Positions 6,754-13,732 of a stretch of DNA of 64,000 nt are shown one piece after another (the stretch's first letter is position 1; every line of letters starts with the position of its first letter). A program made the position numbers and the translations under genes. Origin of the DNA: Chloroflexota bacterium (GTDB taxonomy: Bacteria > Chloroflexota > Dehalococcoidia > Lucifugimonadales > UBA826). A model generated the notes under the pieces. The model was not told the origin of the DNA. It made no database searches and saw only the letters and a program-made list of their open reading frames with translations. The DNA lies in the NCBI GenBank assembly GCA_002722155.1, contig PBKS01000009.1, positions 2,748 to 66,747 of the forward strand, written 5' to 3'.

Positions 6754-8397
6754 ATGAACGGTGACCAATTAATGGCCAAACTTTTGAAAAAAGAGGGTAC
6801 TGAATGGATTTCTTGCTTTCCCGCACAAACCCTGATTGAGGCCTGTTCACAGGAAGGAATAAGGCCGATTTTGTGTCGACAAGAGCGGGCAGGAGTAAAC
6901 ATGGCGGATGCGTACAGCCGGATTAATAATGGTAATAAAATCGGTGTGTTTACCATGCAACATGGTCCCGGAGCAGAAAATGCTTTTGGGGGAGTAGCGC
7001 AAGCATATGCTGATAATGTTCCAATGCTACTCATACCCGGAGGGTCCACCGAAAGGAGAGTGGGAGTACACCCAGGATTCGACGCCATACCAAATTACCA
7101 ACATATAACCAAATGGGCAGGGCGAATCAACTCAGTTGAACGCATTCCAGAAATGGTAAGTCGAGCATTTACACATATCCGAAACGGTCGCCCGGGCCCA
7201 GTATTACTCGAATTACCTGGGGATGTTGGTCACGCAGAAGTACCTTCCGATATAGAAGAATATCAACCAAGTAGATCATACAAATCGTATGCATCTGATG
7301 AGGATGTGAGAGATATAGTTACTGCGTTATTGAAAGCGGATACTCCGCTGATAAATGCCGGTCAAGGGGCACTATATGCCGAGGCCACCGAGGAATTAGT
7401 AGAATTCGCAGAATTGGTCAATGTCCCTGTCATGACAACCTTGGCAGGTAAAAGTGCCTTTCCGGAAGACCATTCTCTAGCACTCGGAACTGGCGGAAAT
7501 ACAGGAACTTTGATGGTTGATAGATTCTTGCAAACCACAGATTTCGTGTTAGGCATAGGCACAAGTTTTGCAATATCGAGTTTCACTGCTCCTATGCCCA
7601 TAAATGTGACCAAGGCGCAAATTACCAATACAGCGGAAGATATTAATAGGGATTATCGAGTCGAATACGGAGCTGTCGGGGATGCTAAATTAGTATTACA
7701 ACAGCTAATTGAGGAGGCAAAATCTCAGCTAGGGGAACATGGAAGAGGTGATGTACACGGGGTAAAAGAAAAAATTTCTGAGATAAAAGCTGAATTCATG
7801 AAAGAGTGGGGACCTCGGCTGAATTCGGATGAAACTCCTATGAGCCCATATCGGGTATTTAACGAAATGATGCATGCCATTGATCCGAGAGGTGCTATAG
7901 TCACACATGACTCTGGATACCCGAGAAACCAAATTGTTCCATTTTGGCCCGCTCTCACTCCCCGATCCTACATAGGTTGGGGTAAGTCAACACAATTAGG
8001 TTACGGTCTGGGTCTGGCCTTGGGTGCAAAAGTTGCCGCTCCAGATAAATTGGTCATAAATGTCATGGGGGATGCAGCATTTGGAATGTCAGGCTTAGAT
8101 CTAGAAACGGCTAGCAGATCTGAACTTGGAACAATAACAATTGTATTAAACAACGGTGTTATGACTCATTATTATGACCATTTCCCTCATGCTACAGAGA
8201 ATTGGAAAAGTAATGAATTAGGGGGAATATATGCGGATACTGCAAAAAGCTTGGGGGCCCACGGGGAACGAATACATAACCCAGACGAAATAGGTCCTGC
8301 AATGAAGAGGGCTGTTGAGGTGGCCAATGGCGGCCAACCTGTTCTTCTCGAAATGATCACGAAAGAAGAAGAGAATATATCCACATACGGTCGTTAA
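6754..8397 (+). CDS. Thiamine-pyrophosphate-dependent enzyme (acetolactate synthase / sulfoacetaldehyde acetyltransferase-like)
   Basis: Three-domain TPP enzyme layout. GDAAFGMSGLDLETA ... NNG TPP-binding motif. AGGAG upstream of the ATG. Confidence 0.8.
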   Translation: MNGDQLMAKLLKKEGTEWISCFPAQTLIEACSQEGIRPILCRQERAGVNMADAYSRINNGNKIGVFTMQHGPGAENAFGGVAQAYADNVPMLLIPGGSTERRVGVHPGFDAIPNYQHITKWAGRINSVERIPEMVSRAFTHIRNGRPGPVLLELPGDVGHAEVPSDIEEYQPSRSYKSYASDEDVRDIVTALLKADTPLINAGQGALYAEATEELVEFAELVNVPVMTTLAGKSAFPEDHSLALGTGGNTGTLMVDRFLQTTDFVLGIGTSFAISSFTAPMPINVTKAQITNTAEDINRDYRVEYGAVGDAKLVLQQLIEEAKSQLGEHGRGDVHGVKEKISEIKAEFMKEWGPRLNSDETPMSPYRVFNEMMHAIDPRGAIVTHDSGYPRNQIVPFWPALTPRSYIGWGKSTQLGYGLGLALGAKVAAPDKLVINVMGDAAFGMSGLDLETASRSELGTITIVLNNGVMTHYYDHFPHATENWKSNELGGIYADTAKSLGAHGERIHNPDEIGPAMKRAVEVANGGQPVLLEMITKEEENISTYGR

Positions 8398-8407
8398 CTT
8401 GAATTAT

Positions 8408-8460
8408 AAACCGGTATACACAGCGGGCGCCGTCTAGATGGTCGCTGTGTATACCGGTTT
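8408..8460. terminator. 18-bp perfect inverted repeat between convergent genes (candidate bidirectional terminator)
   Basis: AAACCGGTATACACAGCG (8408..8425) pairs with CGCTGTGTATACCGGTTT (8443..8460), with a 17-nt loop. The right arm encodes the last codons of the minus-strand gene. Confidence 0.55.
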
Positions 8461-9351
8461 CAACCCACAGGGTCTAAATTTCAATTTGTGTTGCCTTAAA
8501 CCTGCGATTCCCAAATCGCTGGCATCATTTACCAAGTTATAATCCCGTAACATTCCAAATGTCCTCCATCTAAGATATTCAGACACTCCTGTAATTCCTA
8601 TCGATGTTTTGGCGACAAAAAAACATGCAGTATTTCGATTTATAGGTCCTGCCATAGAGAAACCAACCAATTTCTTATCTAACTCTAATCCCCATGCGCT
8701 CATATCACGAGCATTAAATACCTCAACCGAATGGATCGCCGCCCTGGTATACCCCCAATCAAATAAAAATCTATTTTTCTTCCCTTGAGTGGACCTCCAC
8801 TTACTCAGCAATTCTTCAGCCACAGGAAGATCATTTTTCTCCAATGGAAAAAATACAGGGTTTTGTGCTGCTATTCTGTTAATTCTTTTCCTAACATCTT
8901 TAAATTCTTTGCCTTCCAATCCAAATACGATTTTAGGATCGTACATGTATTCTTTTTCTTTCTCTCTGATATCAATATCTTTGCCAAAAATTTTTTTGAG
9001 ACCATCAACATCATAAGAATCGACCCATAAAATACGAATGTCTGGCTGATCCAAATATTCTTTCATTTGTAAAAGATCTGATTTTATTACAGAGGTCAAA
9101 ATAGCTGGTGGAAGGATAAGATCAACTCTGTTGGAATGCTCTCTAGACAAATATTGCAATATGTAAAAATTATTTCCTTTTTTTAACAAGTAAAGAGGCC
9201 TGCTAGGTGGTAAGCTGTAACATGCAAGGTAAGGAGCAAAATAGGCCCATGAGTGCCTCTCAACCTTGTTGAAAATTTCTCTTAATAGAGGAACATCTGA
9301 GACAGATATCAAATCACACCTATCCGAAAATTTCCTGATTAAATCTTGCAA
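8434..9351 (-). CDS. DUF2156 domain protein (MprF C-terminal / aminoacyl-tRNA-dependent transferase fold), standalone
   Basis: Family-typical blocks KEYMYDPKIVFGLEGKEFKDVRKRINRI and VNDASDLGIAGLRQHKLKFRPCGLKPVY. TTG start lies 2 nt after the upstream stop codon. Confidence 0.7.
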   Translation of the reverse strand: MQDLIRKFSDRCDLISVSDVPLLREIFNKVERHSWAYFAPYLACYSLPPSRPLYLLKKGNNFYILQYLSREHSNRVDLILPPAILTSVIKSDLLQMKEYLDQPDIRILWVDSYDVDGLKKIFGKDIDIREKEKEYMYDPKIVFGLEGKEFKDVRKRINRIAAQNPVFFPLEKNDLPVAEELLSKWRSTQGKKNRFLFDWGYTRAAIHSVEVFNARDMSAWGLELDKKLVGFSMAGPINRNTACFFVAKTSIGITGVSEYLRWRTFGMLRDYNLVNDASDLGIAGLRQHKLKFRPCGLKPVYTATI

Positions 9352-9353
9352 AT

Positions 9354-10373
9354 TTAAGTATTCCTTGATTTCGTGTAAATACGATCGCTAAATATTTTTC
9401 CAAAATCTTTTATTCCACCTGGGACAAAAAATCTTCCCATGTTGCTCCGACTTGCATGAATTTGGGATCCAACATACTCGTTAAAGCCAGGAATCAGCTC
9501 TTGGGGTGACAAGCCCATACTCGAGATATTTTCAAAAAAAACGGAATTATCCGTAGGCCTCAGGTTCGGATATGATACAAATCCTATGCCTCCAGTATTT
9601 TCCCTAATCATCTCACCACCAACATTAACGAATCTAGTCAACCCTTGCACAGTATAAGGCGGGTCTGTGATAAATATGTCATGCATATTTTTATGCTGTT
9701 TCGGAATCTCCTCAATCAAATTTATTTCATTCAAATTGATATTTAGACCAAATTGTTTACATTTCGAATCAATAAAATCCAACACTCTCTGGTCAATATC
9801 GAAAACAGTCAAACTATTTATTTCCAATTGAAATCGATTGGAAAACATTGCTATAGCCAAGGAACTGAGATCATCGTCTCCCAGTATCGCTATATCTCTG
9901 CCTTCGAGGCCGTCATTTTCATGAAAGTACATGACTCTTTTAAAACAAGTATCGGAAAGCACATGAGACTGGTCCAAACTGTAGTCAGGGGAGGGTCTTT
10001 CCGATACTAGTTTCTCAAATTCCAAAATTAACTTTTTGACTGAGTCCGAAATTACGTATCTATCACTCGAAGCTGGACGGAGGGTGTCGAGCACGCCAAG
10101 AGTTGTTAATATTTTCACGCCGTACTCGGTCAAAATTGCGCCACTCCTCCTTGAAAGAAGTCCCCTCCTCTCTAATTCTCTACGAGCGGCTGATACAGCT
10201 GGTACAGGTATACCCGTCGCTCTTGAAATATCATGTAACGGGACATTTTTGCCTCTCAATATTTCCCGCATGATCAGCCTCACCCCTTGATACCCTTCTT
10301 GAAGTCGTGAATCAAGAGAGACCCGAACTAAAATGTCTTCCGCCTGAATTCTATTCATAAACCACCGAAACAC
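9354..10373 (-). CDS. BpsA/DUF43-family aminopropyltransferase-like protein with N-terminal winged-HTH
   Basis: ILGDDDLSSLAIAM and IFITDPPYTVQG motifs of the branched-chain polyamine synthase (DUF43) fold. N-terminal HDISRATGIPVPAVSAARRELERRGLL HTH. Start is GTG 10373 or ATG 10358. Confidence 0.7.
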   Translation of the reverse strand: MFRWFMNRIQAEDILVRVSLDSRLQEGYQGVRLIMREILRGKNVPLHDISRATGIPVPAVSAARRELERRGLLSRRSGAILTEYGVKILTTLGVLDTLRPASSDRYVISDSVKKLILEFEKLVSERPSPDYSLDQSHVLSDTCFKRVMYFHENDGLEGRDIAILGDDDLSSLAIAMFSNRFQLEINSLTVFDIDQRVLDFIDSKCKQFGLNINLNEINLIEEIPKQHKNMHDIFITDPPYTVQGLTRFVNVGGEMIRENTGGIGFVSYPNLRPTDNSVFFENISSMGLSPQELIPGFNEYVGSQIHASRSNMGRFFVPGGIKDFGKIFSDRIYTKSRNT

Positions 10374-10624
10374 TCTATTAAATTAATTTCATGATGCCTA
10401 ATAACAAACCTATAGCGCAAAATCGTTATAAGGAATCGTATACCAATTTTTACGGTGGCAGCGCGTTATTTGGCCATGACCGTAAAGCCTTAAAGGAGGC
10501 GGCATTTCACGAACTTTGAAAACAATAGGAGGTTAGCTGAAAACTACACCTAAAAGCTGTAGAGATGGACACAACATGCAATCCGTTATACCGAAAAACA
10601 CGCCACACCCATGACCTCAGGGGT

Positions 10625-10673
10625 AGCTGGTACCATACCAGCTTAATGCCAAAGCAGAATTTATCATTCTGCT
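10625..10673 (-). terminator. Two adjacent 8-bp stem-loops about 100 nt downstream of the ABC ATPase gene (weak terminator candidate)
   Basis: AGCTGGTA-CCA-TACCAGCT (10625..10643) and AGCAGAAT-TTATC-ATTCTGCT (10653..10673). On the minus strand the latter is followed by TTTGG. Confidence 0.3.
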
Positions 10674-10763
10674 GAGATTTGAGCTAAAGCAATCATTCCA
10701 ATTTTTTGTATCTAATGCCTCAAATCCAAAGGTTTGCTAGTAGCAATTTTTTTTATAGCACCA

Positions 10764-11819
10764 CTATCCTTCCCTTGGAAACCAGTAGCAACCGTGTTCG
10801 TCAACGCAATGAGCACAGTGTGCAACTAAATGTCCAGGGCTAATCTCTCTCATCACCAGTTCGTTATCGTCGCAGGCTGGATCTGGAGTAGGGCACAGAG
10901 GATCGTAGCTACATGCAGAAGGGGGTGACATAGGACTTGGTACTCCTCCCCTTAGGATTATTCTTTCTCTTTCAGCTTCCATCAACGGATCTGGTATCGG
11001 AACAGCAGATAGGAGAGCTTTTGTGTACGGGTGCACAGGATTTTCATACAGCTCATTTCTTTCAGCTATTTCCACTATATGCCCTAAATACATGACTGCT
11101 ATACGATCACTTATATGCTTCACAACTGATAAATCATGGGCAATAAATAGATATGTTAGACCTAGGTCCTCTTGAAGATCTTCGAGCAAATTAATTATTT
11201 GAGCCTGTATTGAAACATCCAGCGCTGATACTGGCTCATCACAAACTATAAAACTTGGGTTTACTGCAAGGGCTCTTGCAATACCTATTCTCTGTCTTTG
11301 ACCTCCACTAAATTCATGTGGGTAGCGATCTGCCATATATGGGCTAAGACCGCAAGTAGTTAGCAATTCGGAAACTCTATCCCTATATTCCCCTTTGCTT
11401 TCAGTCAATTTGTGGACCTTTAGAGGTTCCCCCACTATATCCCCACAAGTCATACGGGGATTAAGAGATCCATAGGGATCCTGGAAGATCACCTGCATCT
11501 CTCGTCGCATTGAACGCAATTCACCTGTGTTCAGAGAAGTTATATCTGTTCCATCAAAAATAACCTCACCTGCGGTAGGCTCATACAGCTGAAGAATACA
11601 TCTACCAGTTGTGGTTTTACCGCATCCGCTTTCACCTACGAGGCCAAGTGCCTCACCTTTTCGAATCGTAAAGGTTACATCGTCCACAGCCTTTACGTCG
11701 GCAACTTTTCTTTGGAAAATAATTCCTTCAGTCACGGGAAAGTACATTTTAAGGTTATTCACCTCAACCAATGTATCTCCTACCTTAGCTCCGGATTTTG
11801 CCTCTATTGATGTAGTCAT
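10764..11819 (-). CDS. Oligopeptide/dipeptide ABC transporter ATP-binding protein (OppF/DppF type)
   Basis: GESGCGKTT Walker A, FSGGQRQR signature, [11 protein letters not shown] Walker B. Oligopeptide C-terminal domain plus a Cys-rich tail. Confidence 0.85.
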
Positions 11820-11874
11820 TTCATATCCACCTAACGTGATTAACTATTCAAAATAAAATCTTGCTATTATCAAA

Positions 11875-12888
11875 TTACGAGTCCCTAGGAAACCATTTGC
11901 ATCCATATTCTTCTTCACAATGAGCACAATACGCGACCCAATGGTTAGGTTCTTCTTCCCTCAAGACAGGCTCTCCAGTAAGACATTCTTCAACAGGCTC
12001 AGAACAGTTAGATTGGAACCCACAACCTGCAGGTCTATTGCCAAGGTTGGGTGGCATGCCTTCGATCGCCTCCAGCCTTTCTCTTGTGTCATCATCGGCA
12101 TCTAATCGGGGCACCGAATTGAGTAGTCCCCTCGTATAAGGGTGCAAAGGATTTTTATAGATCTCAACCGCAGTTGATGTTTCCACAATTTTACCAGCAT
12201 ACATAACAATTACCCGATCAGCATATCTGGCTACTACACCTAGATTGTGGGTAATTATAATCAAGGCCGTTCCTAAATCCCTGGCCAAATCCTGCATCAA
12301 TTCCAATATCTGTGCCTGTATGGTGACGTCCAGCGCAGTTGTTGGCTCGTCAGCAATGATTAACTTCGGGTCACAACTTAGAGCCATTGCAATCATCACC
12401 CTTTGCCGCATTCCTCCACTGAATTGATGCGGGTAATCGTCTAGACGAGTATCCGCATCAGGAATTCCAACCATTGTGAGCAACTCTGAGGCCCGTGCTC
12501 TCGATTCCGACTTGTTCATATTTTGGTGTAATTCCAAGGTCTCCGTTAATTGGCGACCGACAGTGAGAACTGGGTTCAGCGAGGTCATCGGTTCCTGGAA
12601 AACCATAGAAATGTTGTTCCCTCGAATATTCCTCATTTCTTTTTCATCCATTTGGACGAGATCTTCACCACCAAACAACACCTCTCCATCGACTATTCTT
12701 CCGGGAGGGCTCGCGACCAAACGCATTATAGACATAGCACCCACACTTTTGCCGCAACCACTCTCTCCAACTATCCCTACTACTTCTCCTTCAGCGACCT
12801 CATATGAAATCCCATCAACGGCTTTAACAACACCGTCAGCAGTGAAAAAATGGGTTTTTAAATTTTTAACTTCCAGCAACGGAGCCAT
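11875..12888 (-). CDS. Oligopeptide/dipeptide ABC transporter ATP-binding protein (OppD/DppD type)
   Basis: GESGCGKSV, FSGGMRQRV, IIADEPTTALD. C-terminal oligopeptide domain plus a Cys-rich tail. Confidence 0.85.
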   Translation of the reverse strand: MAPLLEVKNLKTHFFTADGVVKAVDGISYEVAEGEVVGIVGESGCGKSVGAMSIMRLVASPPGRIVDGEVLFGGEDLVQMDEKEMRNIRGNNISMVFQEPMTSLNPVLTVGRQLTETLELHQNMNKSESRARASELLTMVGIPDADTRLDDYPHQFSGGMRQRVMIAMALSCDPKLIIADEPTTALDVTIQAQILELMQDLARDLGTALIIITHNLGVVARYADRVIVMYAGKIVETSTAVEIYKNPLHPYTRGLLNSVPRLDADDDTRERLEAIEGMPPNLGNRPAGCGFQSNCSEPVEECLTGEPVLREEEPNHWVAYCAHCEEEYGCKWFPRDS

Positions 12889-13015: not shown

Positions 13016-13732
13016 TCAAGATAACCGACCTTCAGTTAGTGAATTTAGATTATCAACCACCATTTCTACTGCGTGATCAATACTCATTTCACTAGTGTTA
13101 ACGGTAAAATGAAAAAGCTCGGGCGCATCAGGTTCATCCAGTTCAAAAAACTTTTTGAAATAATGGCTCCTAGCTGCATCTCGTTGTTTCAGAGTAGCAA
13201 TAGCATCTTCCCGACCAATGGATTCTCTATTCATTAGAGTGTGAATTCTCTGTTCAAGCGAAGCAACAACCCCTATTCTCAAGACATTTGGCATGTCCTT
13301 GAGTATGACATGACCACCCCTCCCAACAAATACTACGTCTCCGTCATCTGCCATTTCTTTCATAGTAGCTTCTATTGCTTCTATGTAAACCTCATCCTGA
13401 ACCTCATGGCCATGAGTCATTATTGGAGCAGGCATGTCCTCATATTCCGCGGTAAGCAACCCAGTAATACCAGGACCAAAGTACGGATCGCCAGCTGATC
13501 CTGTTACCGCGGACCTCTCTAAAAGCCTTTGCACAACCTGTATCCACTTCTCTACCCGCGTTGGAAGTTTCTCTTCTCTTTGGTGCAAAGCCTCCACCGT
13601 CACTCCTAATTCCTTTGCCACAGAAGAGAGAAAAATCCTATCCACATAGTCTGCCTTCAATTTCGCAGCAACCAGTGGCCCAATATCCCTTGCTCCGCCC
13701 CCAGCCATACCGCCAAGCGTAATCGCGTACAT
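13016..13732 (-). CDS. Cytidylate kinase-like family protein
   Basis: N-terminal ITLGGMAGGGARDIGPLVAAKL P-loop-like segment; size and layout of the Cytidylate_kin2 family. Confidence 0.6.
   Translation of the reverse strand: MYAITLGGMAGGGARDIGPLVAAKLKADYVDRIFLSSVAKELGVTVEALHQREEKLPTRVEKWIQVVQRLLERSAVTGSAGDPYFGPGITGLLTAEYEDMPAPIMTHGHEVQDEVYIEAIEATMKEMADDGDVVFVGRGGHVILKDMPNVLRIGVVASLEQRIHTLMNRESIGREDAIATLKQRDAARSHYFKKFFELDEPDAPELFHFTVNTSEMSIDHAVEMVVDNLNSLTEGRLS

Follow-up and report, generated by a model that had tools for sequence, protein, structure and literature searches.

What could a gene resembling that of a branched-polyamine synthase and a gene for a stand-alone DUF2156 transferase be doing together in one operon of a marine bacterium? 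The question is raised by the minus strand of a 64,000-nucleotide stretch of contig PBKS01000009.1 (assembly GCA_002722155.1), hereafter the window. According to the list of open reading frames (ORFs), two ORFs occupy positions 8434..10373: upstream lies the gene of a protein resembling the aminopropyltransferase BpsA (P0001), and downstream lies the gene of a DUF2156 protein (P0002). The host genome is a metagenome-assembled genome of the SAR202 cluster (Dehalococcoidia, phylum Chloroflexota), with an assembly of 1.65 Mb that is 86% complete. SAR202 ranks among the most abundant groups of bacteria in the dark ocean. The mesophilic marine host supposed in an earlier reading of this DNA, made from its letters alone (the sequence-only reading), agrees with this placement of a non-thermophile. 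The pair is a real, widely conserved and previously undescribed module; both its combination of two known kinds of enzyme and the subfamily are new. As to its chemistry, which would follow from homology and gene context, we give an even chance to the reading that the pair builds a modified polyamine by aminopropylation dependent on decarboxylated S-adenosylmethionine (dcSAM) and by aminoacylation of an amine dependent on aminoacyl-tRNA (aa-tRNA).

Both ORFs and the domains assigned to them in the sequence-only reading were recovered. P0001 matches the Pfam family PF01861 (BpsA_C) over residues 117–308 with an E-value of 8e-34 and 117.4 bits (cut-off 27), and P0002 matches PF09924 (LPG_synthase_C, formerly DUF2156) with an E-value of 5.8e-14 and 52.3 bits (cut-off 27.5). 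NCBIfam contains no family for either protein. The P0002 gene (8434..9351, minus strand) encodes a stand-alone soluble tandem-GNAT transferase of 305 aa. The BpsA-like gene had been placed at 9354..10373; the ORF, which is the longest one and runs from the GTG at 10373 (339 aa), stands, while the start does not. The homologues of P0001 are 334–337 aa in length and start level with its Met6, so translation probably begins at the ATG at 10358 instead, which gives a gene of 334 aa at 9354..10358. The short distance between the genes was also read correctly: at the intercistronic junction (9349..9356, minus strand), the TAA stop (9354..9356) is followed after 2 nt by a weak TTG start (9349..9351), which suggests translational coupling.

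The pair is well conserved among the relatives of the host. In the GTDB family of the window, homologues of P0001 were found in 22 of the 24 genomes and homologues of P0002 in 23, and wherever both are located on one contig they are adjacent and co-directional, at identities down to ~38–45%. The module is single-copy and vertically kept across this SAR202 family. Searches of 16 further families of the same order yielded neither homologue, and 250 additional Chloroflexota genomes gave no close homologue of P0002 (E <= 1e-20).

A wider survey of species-representative genomes returned 409 BpsA-like relatives, the best 80 loci of which were kept, and DUF2156 genes were called in them with our own hidden Markov models. 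The DUF2156 gene is located directly downstream of the BpsA-like gene in 61 of these best 80 of 409 loci. The paired loci belong to Chloroflexota (18, all SAR202-like), Latescibacterota (~35), bins labelled Gemmatimonadota (five) and Armatimonadota (one), and two are unlabelled; the pair is also present on one Planctomycetota contig (L100). Thus, the pair is kept across at least five phyla. No cultured organism was found among the pair-bearing loci within the best 80 of 409. In the phylum Latescibacterota, the DUF2156 partner is present in one copy in 52 of the 121 sampled genomes (~43%).

The tight junction is conserved as well: the DUF2156 frame begins no more than 30 nt from the stop of the BpsA-like gene in 62 of 66 loci, with a median of 2 nt. 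In five loci of SAR202 relatives (L017:7005-7020, L018–L020 and L022), no ATG, GTG or TTG for the DUF2156 gene can be noted near this stop, and the sole plausible start is a CTG overlapping the TGA stop (CTGA). Such an overlap suggests termination–reinitiation coupling with a non-canonical start codon.

When comparing the two proteins across the loci, their pairwise distances correlate with r = 0.96, a figure inflated by the relatedness of the sequences. Between Chloroflexota and the other phyla, identity is 37% for either protein, and this in-step divergence is consistent with their inheritance as a single unit. Moreover, the two proteins are found fused: P0099 (702 aa) and P0108 (713 aa) contain BpsA_C, a zinc ribbon and LPG_synthase_C in the order of the separate genes, with the GDDD, DPPYT and FNxY motifs intact. 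A further homology search for BpsA–DUF2156 fusions revealed none more among the matches listed. The neighbourhood survey proposed in the sequence-only reading thus found the adjacency conserved in the SAR202 family, in at least five phyla and in fused proteins. The adjacency is not due to chance, and the pair would be a functional unit; probably, both enzymes form one complex. The literature on DUF2156, DUF43/PF01861, BpsA and aa-tRNA transferases yielded no paper describing the pair, in line with the statement of the sequence-only reading that it knew of no described function for the pairing, and no mention of polyamines was found in reviews of aa-tRNA transferases.

The first of the two proteins has the two-domain structure of BpsA. 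An N-terminal winged-helix domain (residues ~8–92; 10098..10352, minus strand) precedes a Rossmann-type catalytic domain (residues 117–308; 9450..10025), which is the region of the PF01861 match. Searches of the PDB matched P0001 with the Pyrococcus protein 2qm3 (9.6e-25, aligned from residue 12) and with 5xnc, the BpsA of T. kodakarensis (Tk-BpsA; 1.9e-23). The profile of the subfamily (positions 5–6 to 297) aligns with chain residues 21–311 of 5xnc and 24–314 of 2qm3. In the AlphaFold2 model of P0001 (mean predicted local distance difference test score, pLDDT, 87.5), helices are located at residues 8–69 and a beta hairpin at 73–81. The top nine Foldseek matches of this model are chains of the BpsA family (5xnc, 5xnf, 5xnh, 2qm3, 6j27 and 6j28), with 341–365 alignment columns. 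The winged helix had been described as a MarR-like fusion, which turned out to be wrong: because the solved BpsA structures align through the N-domain, it is not an added part but the standard BpsA N-domain, and MarR_2, HTH_24 and other winged-helix Pfam families match residues 32–91 only below their cut-offs.

The catalytic motifs named in the sequence-only reading are in place, and their invariance was judged on P0001 and 18 relatives. The GDDD motif (G165–D168, context LGDDDLSS; 9870..9881, minus strand) corresponds to G157–D160 of Tk-BpsA and is invariant in 19 of 19 subfamily members. The DPPYT motif (D237–T241; 9651..9665), whose D237 corresponds to Asp225 of Tk-BpsA, is also invariant and has Tyr in place of the Glu of DPPET in the T. 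kodakarensis enzyme. In the FNEY motif (F297–Y300; 9474..9485), Y300 corresponds to Tyr290 of Tk-BpsA by sequence alignment, and this Tyr is invariant. Asp194 of motif II and L24, E26 and G27 of the N-terminal domain are likewise invariant. In Tk-BpsA, GDDD (157–160) positions the aminopropyl group of dcSAM, Asp225, Glu259, Tyr290 and Tyr316 activate the acceptor amine, and an acidic C-terminal cluster (E339, D342–E345) serves as the covalent carrier of the aminopropyl group in a ping-pong mechanism (PMC12979288, a 2026 review). The residues for S-adenosylmethionine or dcSAM binding, whose presence the sequence-only reading had left to be checked, were thus found: the cofactor motifs are present and GDDD is invariant.

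The identification of P0001 as BpsA itself, in turn, survived in part: the family, the fold and the GDDD motif are those of BpsA, while orthology to the validated enzymes is not supported. Glu259 of Tk-BpsA aligns to R272 of P0001, in a variable column. Tyr316 lies beyond the alignment and may correspond to the invariant Y333. The C-terminus of P0001 (...IYTKSRNT) is short and lacks the acidic cluster, and the tails of its relatives are basic (e.g., ADRKRSRKRH). A family tree of 109 rows, obtained with a quick search, with an unknown root and with partial sequences as PDB rows, clusters Tk-BpsA, the BpsA of Thermus thermophilus (Tt-BpsA) and Pyrococcus 2qm3 with proteins of Bathyarchaeota. All 62 of the 62 DUF2156-linked proteins are in a group separate from the validated BpsAs (SH-aLRT 92). 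On account of the separate clade, the missing Glu259 and acidic tail, and DPPYT instead of DPPET, we assign the DUF2156-linked proteins to a distinct BpsA subfamily, not to the orthologues of EC 2.5.1.128. Their acceptor may be other than spermidine, and their mechanism may be a direct displacement.

Could P0001 be an ordinary branched-chain polyamine synthase that merely lies beside an unrelated DUF2156 gene? A full-length BpsA architecture with GDDD would suit such an enzyme, and the SpeD and SpeE of the genome would supply its substrates. However, the adjacency persists at 35–40% identity across phyla, the partners occur as fusions and diverge in step, and the linked proteins group apart from the validated BpsAs and lack Glu259 and the acidic tail. 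We consider this explanation scarcely credible.

Another possibility is that the target amine belongs to a macromolecule (a nucleic acid, a tRNA-bound amino acid or a protein) and that the DUF2156 enzyme adds an amino acid at the same site. The winged helix may be taken in this sense, as may DPPY, which is the signature of N6-adenine, N2-guanine and Gln-N5 amino-methyltransferases; in the subfamily this motif reads DPPYT without exception, against DPPET in Tk-BpsA and DPVEG in Tt-BpsA. The best fold match of P0001 outside the BpsA family is METTL5, an amino-methyltransferase forming m6A in rRNA, and the tails that follow the conserved YT are basic. In addition, a GNAT-type enzyme has been reported to hypermodify DNA adenine in a tRNA-dependent manner (PMC13219725). 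However, the validated BpsAs share the winged-helix N-domain and yet act on free polyamines, no gene for nucleic acid metabolism or a translation factor is conserved beside the pair across phyla, and the recurrent partner, AdoMet decarboxylase (AdoMetDC), is a polyamine-pathway gene. A macromolecular target is therefore very unlikely in our estimation.

For P0002, PF09924 is the sole Pfam family at E <= 1; no FemAB or acetyltransferase family appears. It is also the only PF09924 protein of the 86%-complete genome, which means that no MprF is found there. In the AlphaFold2 model (pLDDT 92), the tandem GNAT covers the entire 305 aa without a membrane domain, so the protein lacks the membrane flippase domain of MprF, as had been pointed out in the sequence-only reading. 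A PDB search with P0002 itself matches 2hqy at 1.6e-10, and one with the profile at 6.3e-18. Foldseek places 2hqy first (template modelling score, TM, 0.79–0.84; 18–19% identity). The synthase domains of MprF (4v34–4v36, 5vrv, 6lv0, 7duw) follow with TM 0.62–0.67, 13–17% identity and a probability of 1.0. FemX has TM 0.63 and Sba18/Sbb17 0.56–0.58, and the CoA-dependent tandem GNATs (2wpw, VipF, glucosamine N-acetyltransferase) have 0.4–0.5.

Between the two GNAT halves, the model contains a basic helix (residues 148–161, KEFKDVRKRINRIA; 8869..8910, minus strand). All 32 of the DUF2156 sequences compared, which come from several phyla, keep its R154 and K155. The counterpart basic helix of DUF2156, Fem and L/F transferases binds the acceptor stem of tRNA (PMC7334510, PMC6103681), and the helix of P0002 appears to be equivalent to this tRNA-binding alpha(+) helix. 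Since the closest folds of known function are all aa-tRNA transferases and the basic helix is invariant, aa-tRNA would be the best-supported donor for P0002.

Close relatives of P0002 are also found in multidomain proteins. P0089 contains three DUF2156-like stretches and a RimK-type ATP-grasp domain, and P0100 contains two such stretches and the same domain; the fusion partner is a Mur ligase in P0115 and RsgA, a GTPase of ribosome assembly, in P0129. Two or three DUF2156-like stretches each can be counted in P0092, P0101 and P0105. No description of any of these architectures was found in the literature searched. The ligase fusions indicate that the clade of P0002 sits among amide-bond-forming enzymes acting on soluble substrates.

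Sources of dcSAM accompany the wider BpsA family. A small pyruvoyl AdoMet decarboxylase gene is located between the two genes of the pair in Armatimonadota (L088) and Planctomycetota (L100), and AdoMet_dc lies directly downstream of sister BpsA-like genes in Bathyarchaeota loci. Fusions of AdoMet_dc with BpsA_C (P0305–P0307) can be noted in Thorarchaeota and in cultured Xenorhabdus. In the genome of the window, SpeD, a pyruvoyl AdoMet decarboxylase, adjoins SpeE on contig 15 (43568..44652), and these two enzymes probably supply the module with dcSAM and spermidine. AdoMetDC is encoded by 37 of 41 relatives and by three pair-bearing genomes of other phyla (Latescibacterota, Gemmatimonadota and Armatimonadota). 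These linkages and fusions, together with the invariant GDDD, Asp194, Asp237 and Tyr300, point to dcSAM as the donor for the BpsA-like enzyme.

Acyl-transfer partners recur in this family, too. Fusions of a winged helix-turn-helix, BpsA_C and a C-terminal GNAT are present in Bathyarchaeota and actinomycetes (L086:5971-7632, L094:5974-7653, P0054–P0061). Cultured Aureimonas leprariae (L102) has a cassette of BpsA_C, an acyl carrier protein (ACP), an unknown protein, AdoMet_dc and GNAT, which is not the DUF2156 pair. By analogy, the recurring logic of the BpsA family would be aminopropyl transfer combined with N-acyl transfer, the acyl donor here being aa-tRNA. The cultured hosts, Xenorhabdus and A. 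leprariae, offer a possible entry to the biochemistry of the wider family.

The same fusions suggest another donor: P0002 might use acetyl- or acyl-CoA, and the pair would then produce an N-acetyl or N-acyl aminopropyl-polyamine. In Bathyarchaeota and actinomycetes, the Acetyltransf_1 part of the BpsA_C fusions holds the equivalent position, CoA-dependent tandem GNATs are among the lower-ranked fold matches of P0002, and its nearest structure, 2hqy, has no known donor. However, the CoA-dependent enzymes reach TM of only 0.4–0.5 against 0.56–0.67 for the aa-tRNA transferases. The basic inter-domain helix is invariant, and PF09924 is above its cut-off with no acetyltransferase family at E <= 1. 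This makes a CoA donor quite improbable.

Taken as a polyamine-modifying system, the module might function in two steps, the order of which is left free. In one of them, the BpsA-like enzyme would bind dcSAM, provided by the genome's own SpeD encoded beside SpeE on another contig, via the GDDD loop, as homology and context imply, and would pass the aminopropyl group to an amine nitrogen held in the DPPY/FNEY pocket. In the other, the DUF2156 enzyme, judging from its fold and helix, would take an amino acid from aa-tRNA docked on the basic helix and attach it to the same molecule at a free amine (or hydroxyl). The predicted product is a soluble aminoacyl-aminopropyl-amine.

Several observations weigh against this scheme. 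Because Glu259 and the acidic tail are missing, neither spermidine as the acceptor nor the ping-pong mechanism can be assumed for P0001. P0071 of Omnitrophica falls with the linked clade in the tree, from which a DUF2156 neighbour was expected; none is there, although P0071 is a long branch and may be misplaced. The profile of the DUF2156 clade retrieved only 2hqy from the PDB and no MprF chain at E <= 0.1. The top structural match of P0002 is a protein of unknown function, and TM for MprF is no higher than 0.62–0.67. The characterised PF09924 enzymes whose acceptor is stated in the literature found all acylate lipids, the soluble fungal ErdS included. Finally, in 41 loci of Latescibacterota and Gemmatimonadota (e.g., L093:4794-5984), a gene for a polytopic membrane protein of ~390 aa is located directly upstream of the pair, often overlapping the BpsA-like gene. 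No Pfam family matches this protein, whose C-terminal tail is very acidic, and its presence hints at a role in the envelope.

The last two observations also suit a lipid-directed reading: the DUF2156 enzyme would aminoacylate a lipid head group, as MprF and ErdS do, and the BpsA-like enzyme would add aminopropyl units to an amine of this head group or of the amino acid attached to it, giving a polycationic lipid. Apart from the lipid acceptors of the family and the upstream membrane protein, it is favoured by the MprF C-domains among the top fold matches of P0002, by the putative lipoprotein often encoded downstream and by the ABC_membrane (exporter-type) gene 3' of the Planctomycetota triad. 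On the other hand, the SAR202 operon does not include the membrane protein, and no homologue of it was detected in the 86%-complete genome. The part conserved across phyla consists of the two soluble enzymes alone, accompanied by AdoMetDC or not. In the sister BpsA branches, the partners are ordinary GNATs and ACP cassettes of the sort usually engaged in small-molecule work, and no aminopropylated lipid was found in the literature searches. A soluble rather than a membrane role is indicated for the SAR202 pair by the absence of a membrane domain in P0002, of a membrane partner and of MprF in the genome. We regard the lipid-directed reading as unlikely.

The idea that the membrane protein is a core part of the module was rejected, as SAR202 has no detectable homologue, and it is taken to be lineage-specific for the same reason. 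A gene for a putative lipoprotein of ~108 aa is often located 3' of the DUF2156 gene in the Latescibacterota and Gemmatimonadota loci. Neither this lipoprotein nor the membrane partner was found in the 86%-complete SAR202 genome of the window.

Returning to polyamine modification, a bolder variant can be imagined, in which the BpsA-like protein docks on aa-tRNA through its winged helix and basic tail and aminopropylates the amine of the tRNA-bound amino acid in its DPPY pocket, and the DUF2156 enzyme then transfers the N-aminopropyl-aminoacyl unit to an acceptor. Going by the sequence features, we give this variant only a very slim chance, and we know of no precedent for a tRNA-templated route to polyamine–amino acid hybrids. 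The proposed modification of a free polyamine, a milder form of such a route, would be the first tRNA-dependent aminoacylation of this kind, and in our judgement the scales are evenly balanced on it. Polyamine biology and tRNA-dependent non-ribosomal transfer of amino acids are both well studied, and we found no report linking them. If the proposal is true, aminoacyl-aminopropyl amines are a new class of metabolites and the BpsA family reaches beyond the branched polyamines of thermophiles. DUF2156 enzymes would then gain a non-lipid acceptor and aa-tRNA a further use outside translation.

As for the surroundings of the operon, the neighbours of the pair are functionally unrelated to it: two Opp/Dpp-type ATP-binding cassette (ABC) ATPases upstream and, downstream, a convergent thiamine pyrophosphate (TPP) enzyme, an NHL-repeat protein and a flavoprotein. 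A hairpin of 68 nt covers the last codons and the stop of the DUF2156 gene (8400..8467, RNA fold). Its folding free energy is -36.4 kcal/mol (z = -5.7), equalled by 0 of 200 shuffles, and it likely terminates transcription in both directions, with the convergent TPP-enzyme gene ending at 8397. On the other side, the operon is preceded by a non-coding spacer (10359..10763, minus strand; 390 nt at 10374..10763 when counted from the GTG at 10373), where its promoter and 5' leader are presumably located. An Rfam scan of 8000..11200 at E <= 1 gave no match, and no riboswitch or leader was found in the spacer. The scan for promoter and terminator consensus sequences gave counts at chance level and no minus-strand promoter-like site in the spacer. 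In most relatives of the same genus, the position of the spacer is occupied by a TPP-enzyme gene. The spacer has no protein or DNA similarity to the gene located there in the relatives, which leaves the idea of a gene remnant without support.

The two ABC ATPase genes directly upstream (10764..12888, minus strand) are the best matches in the genome (59%; next paralogue 51%) to the Opp ATPase encoded beside the pair in many Latescibacterota loci (L049:9006-12924), where it is accompanied by OppB/OppC permeases and a PhyH dioxygenase. The ATPases of the window have a Cys-rich tail (CAHC...GC.WFPR), and those of Latescibacterota do not. Possibly, a specific peptide-type ABC transporter travels with the module in two phyla, or this is a coincidence. 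Further upstream, a Cytidylate_kin2-type P-loop gene (13016..13732, minus strand) is syntenic throughout the SAR202 family, with 45–76% identity. In two genera, the P-loop gene and a gene resembling epimerases of the short-chain dehydrogenase/reductase type directly precede the pair in a four-gene cluster on the same strand, and in some Latescibacterota a P-loop gene resembling adenylylsulfate (APS) kinase is located 3' of the pair instead; examples of these arrangements are L032:4326-5997 and L092.

Comparison with known systems shows what is shared and what is new. The closest relative of P0001 is BpsA (EC 2.5.1.128; T. kodakarensis 5xnc/5xnf/5xnh, T. thermophilus 6j27, and Pyrococcus 2qm3). 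The two-domain architecture, GDDD, Asp225 (D237) and Tyr290 (Y300) are common to them, as is the linkage to AdoMet decarboxylase in related lineages. However, P0001 is outside the clade of the three solved proteins, two of which are validated BpsAs. It has DPPYT instead of DPPET or DPVEG, no conserved Glu259, and a short basic tail instead of the acidic carrier cluster. Instead of coming from a thermophile, it belongs to a marine bacterium of cold or mesophilic lifestyle, and its gene is coupled to a DUF2156 gene, which is not known for any validated BpsA.

P0002 shares PF09924, the tandem-GNAT fold and the basic inter-GNAT helix with the domain of MprF (aminoacyl-phosphatidylglycerol synthase). 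Unlike MprF, it has no flippase or membrane domain, and the gene upstream encodes a soluble BpsA-like protein; since its partner is an aminopropyltransferase, a lipid acceptor is not indicated in SAR202. Polyamine N-acetyltransferases of the SpeG/SSAT type also cap a primary amine of polyamines, with a single GNAT domain and acetyl-CoA. They have no sequence relationship to P0002 beyond the superfamily, and it is to the sister BpsA-like proteins that ordinary GNATs are fused. By both sequence and fold, the best match is 2hqy of Bacteroides thetaiotaomicron, a soluble protein from structural genomics with the same length of 305 aa; as its function is unknown, it names no activity for P0002.

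The tandem-GNAT fold is also that of FemX (1ne9, 4ii9), Orf11/Sba18/Sbb17 (9wqy, 9wqx) and VlmA. VlmA may count as a PF09924-type exception with a small-molecule acceptor, but a 2026 review groups it with the FemABX enzymes. FemX and Sba18/Sbb17 differ from P0002 in that TM is 0.56–0.63, identity is 10–12% and P0002 has no FemAB Pfam membership. All of these enzymes, VlmA included, act on small molecules or peptidoglycan precursors in the pathways of antibiotics or the cell wall, and an aminopropyltransferase partner accompanies none of them. Sba18/Sbb17 are amide synthases that depend on aa-tRNA and whose structures were solved together with streptothrisamine, a small amine (glycyl transfer), and together with FemX and VlmA they provide the precedent for the transfer of an amino acid from tRNA to the amine of a soluble small molecule.

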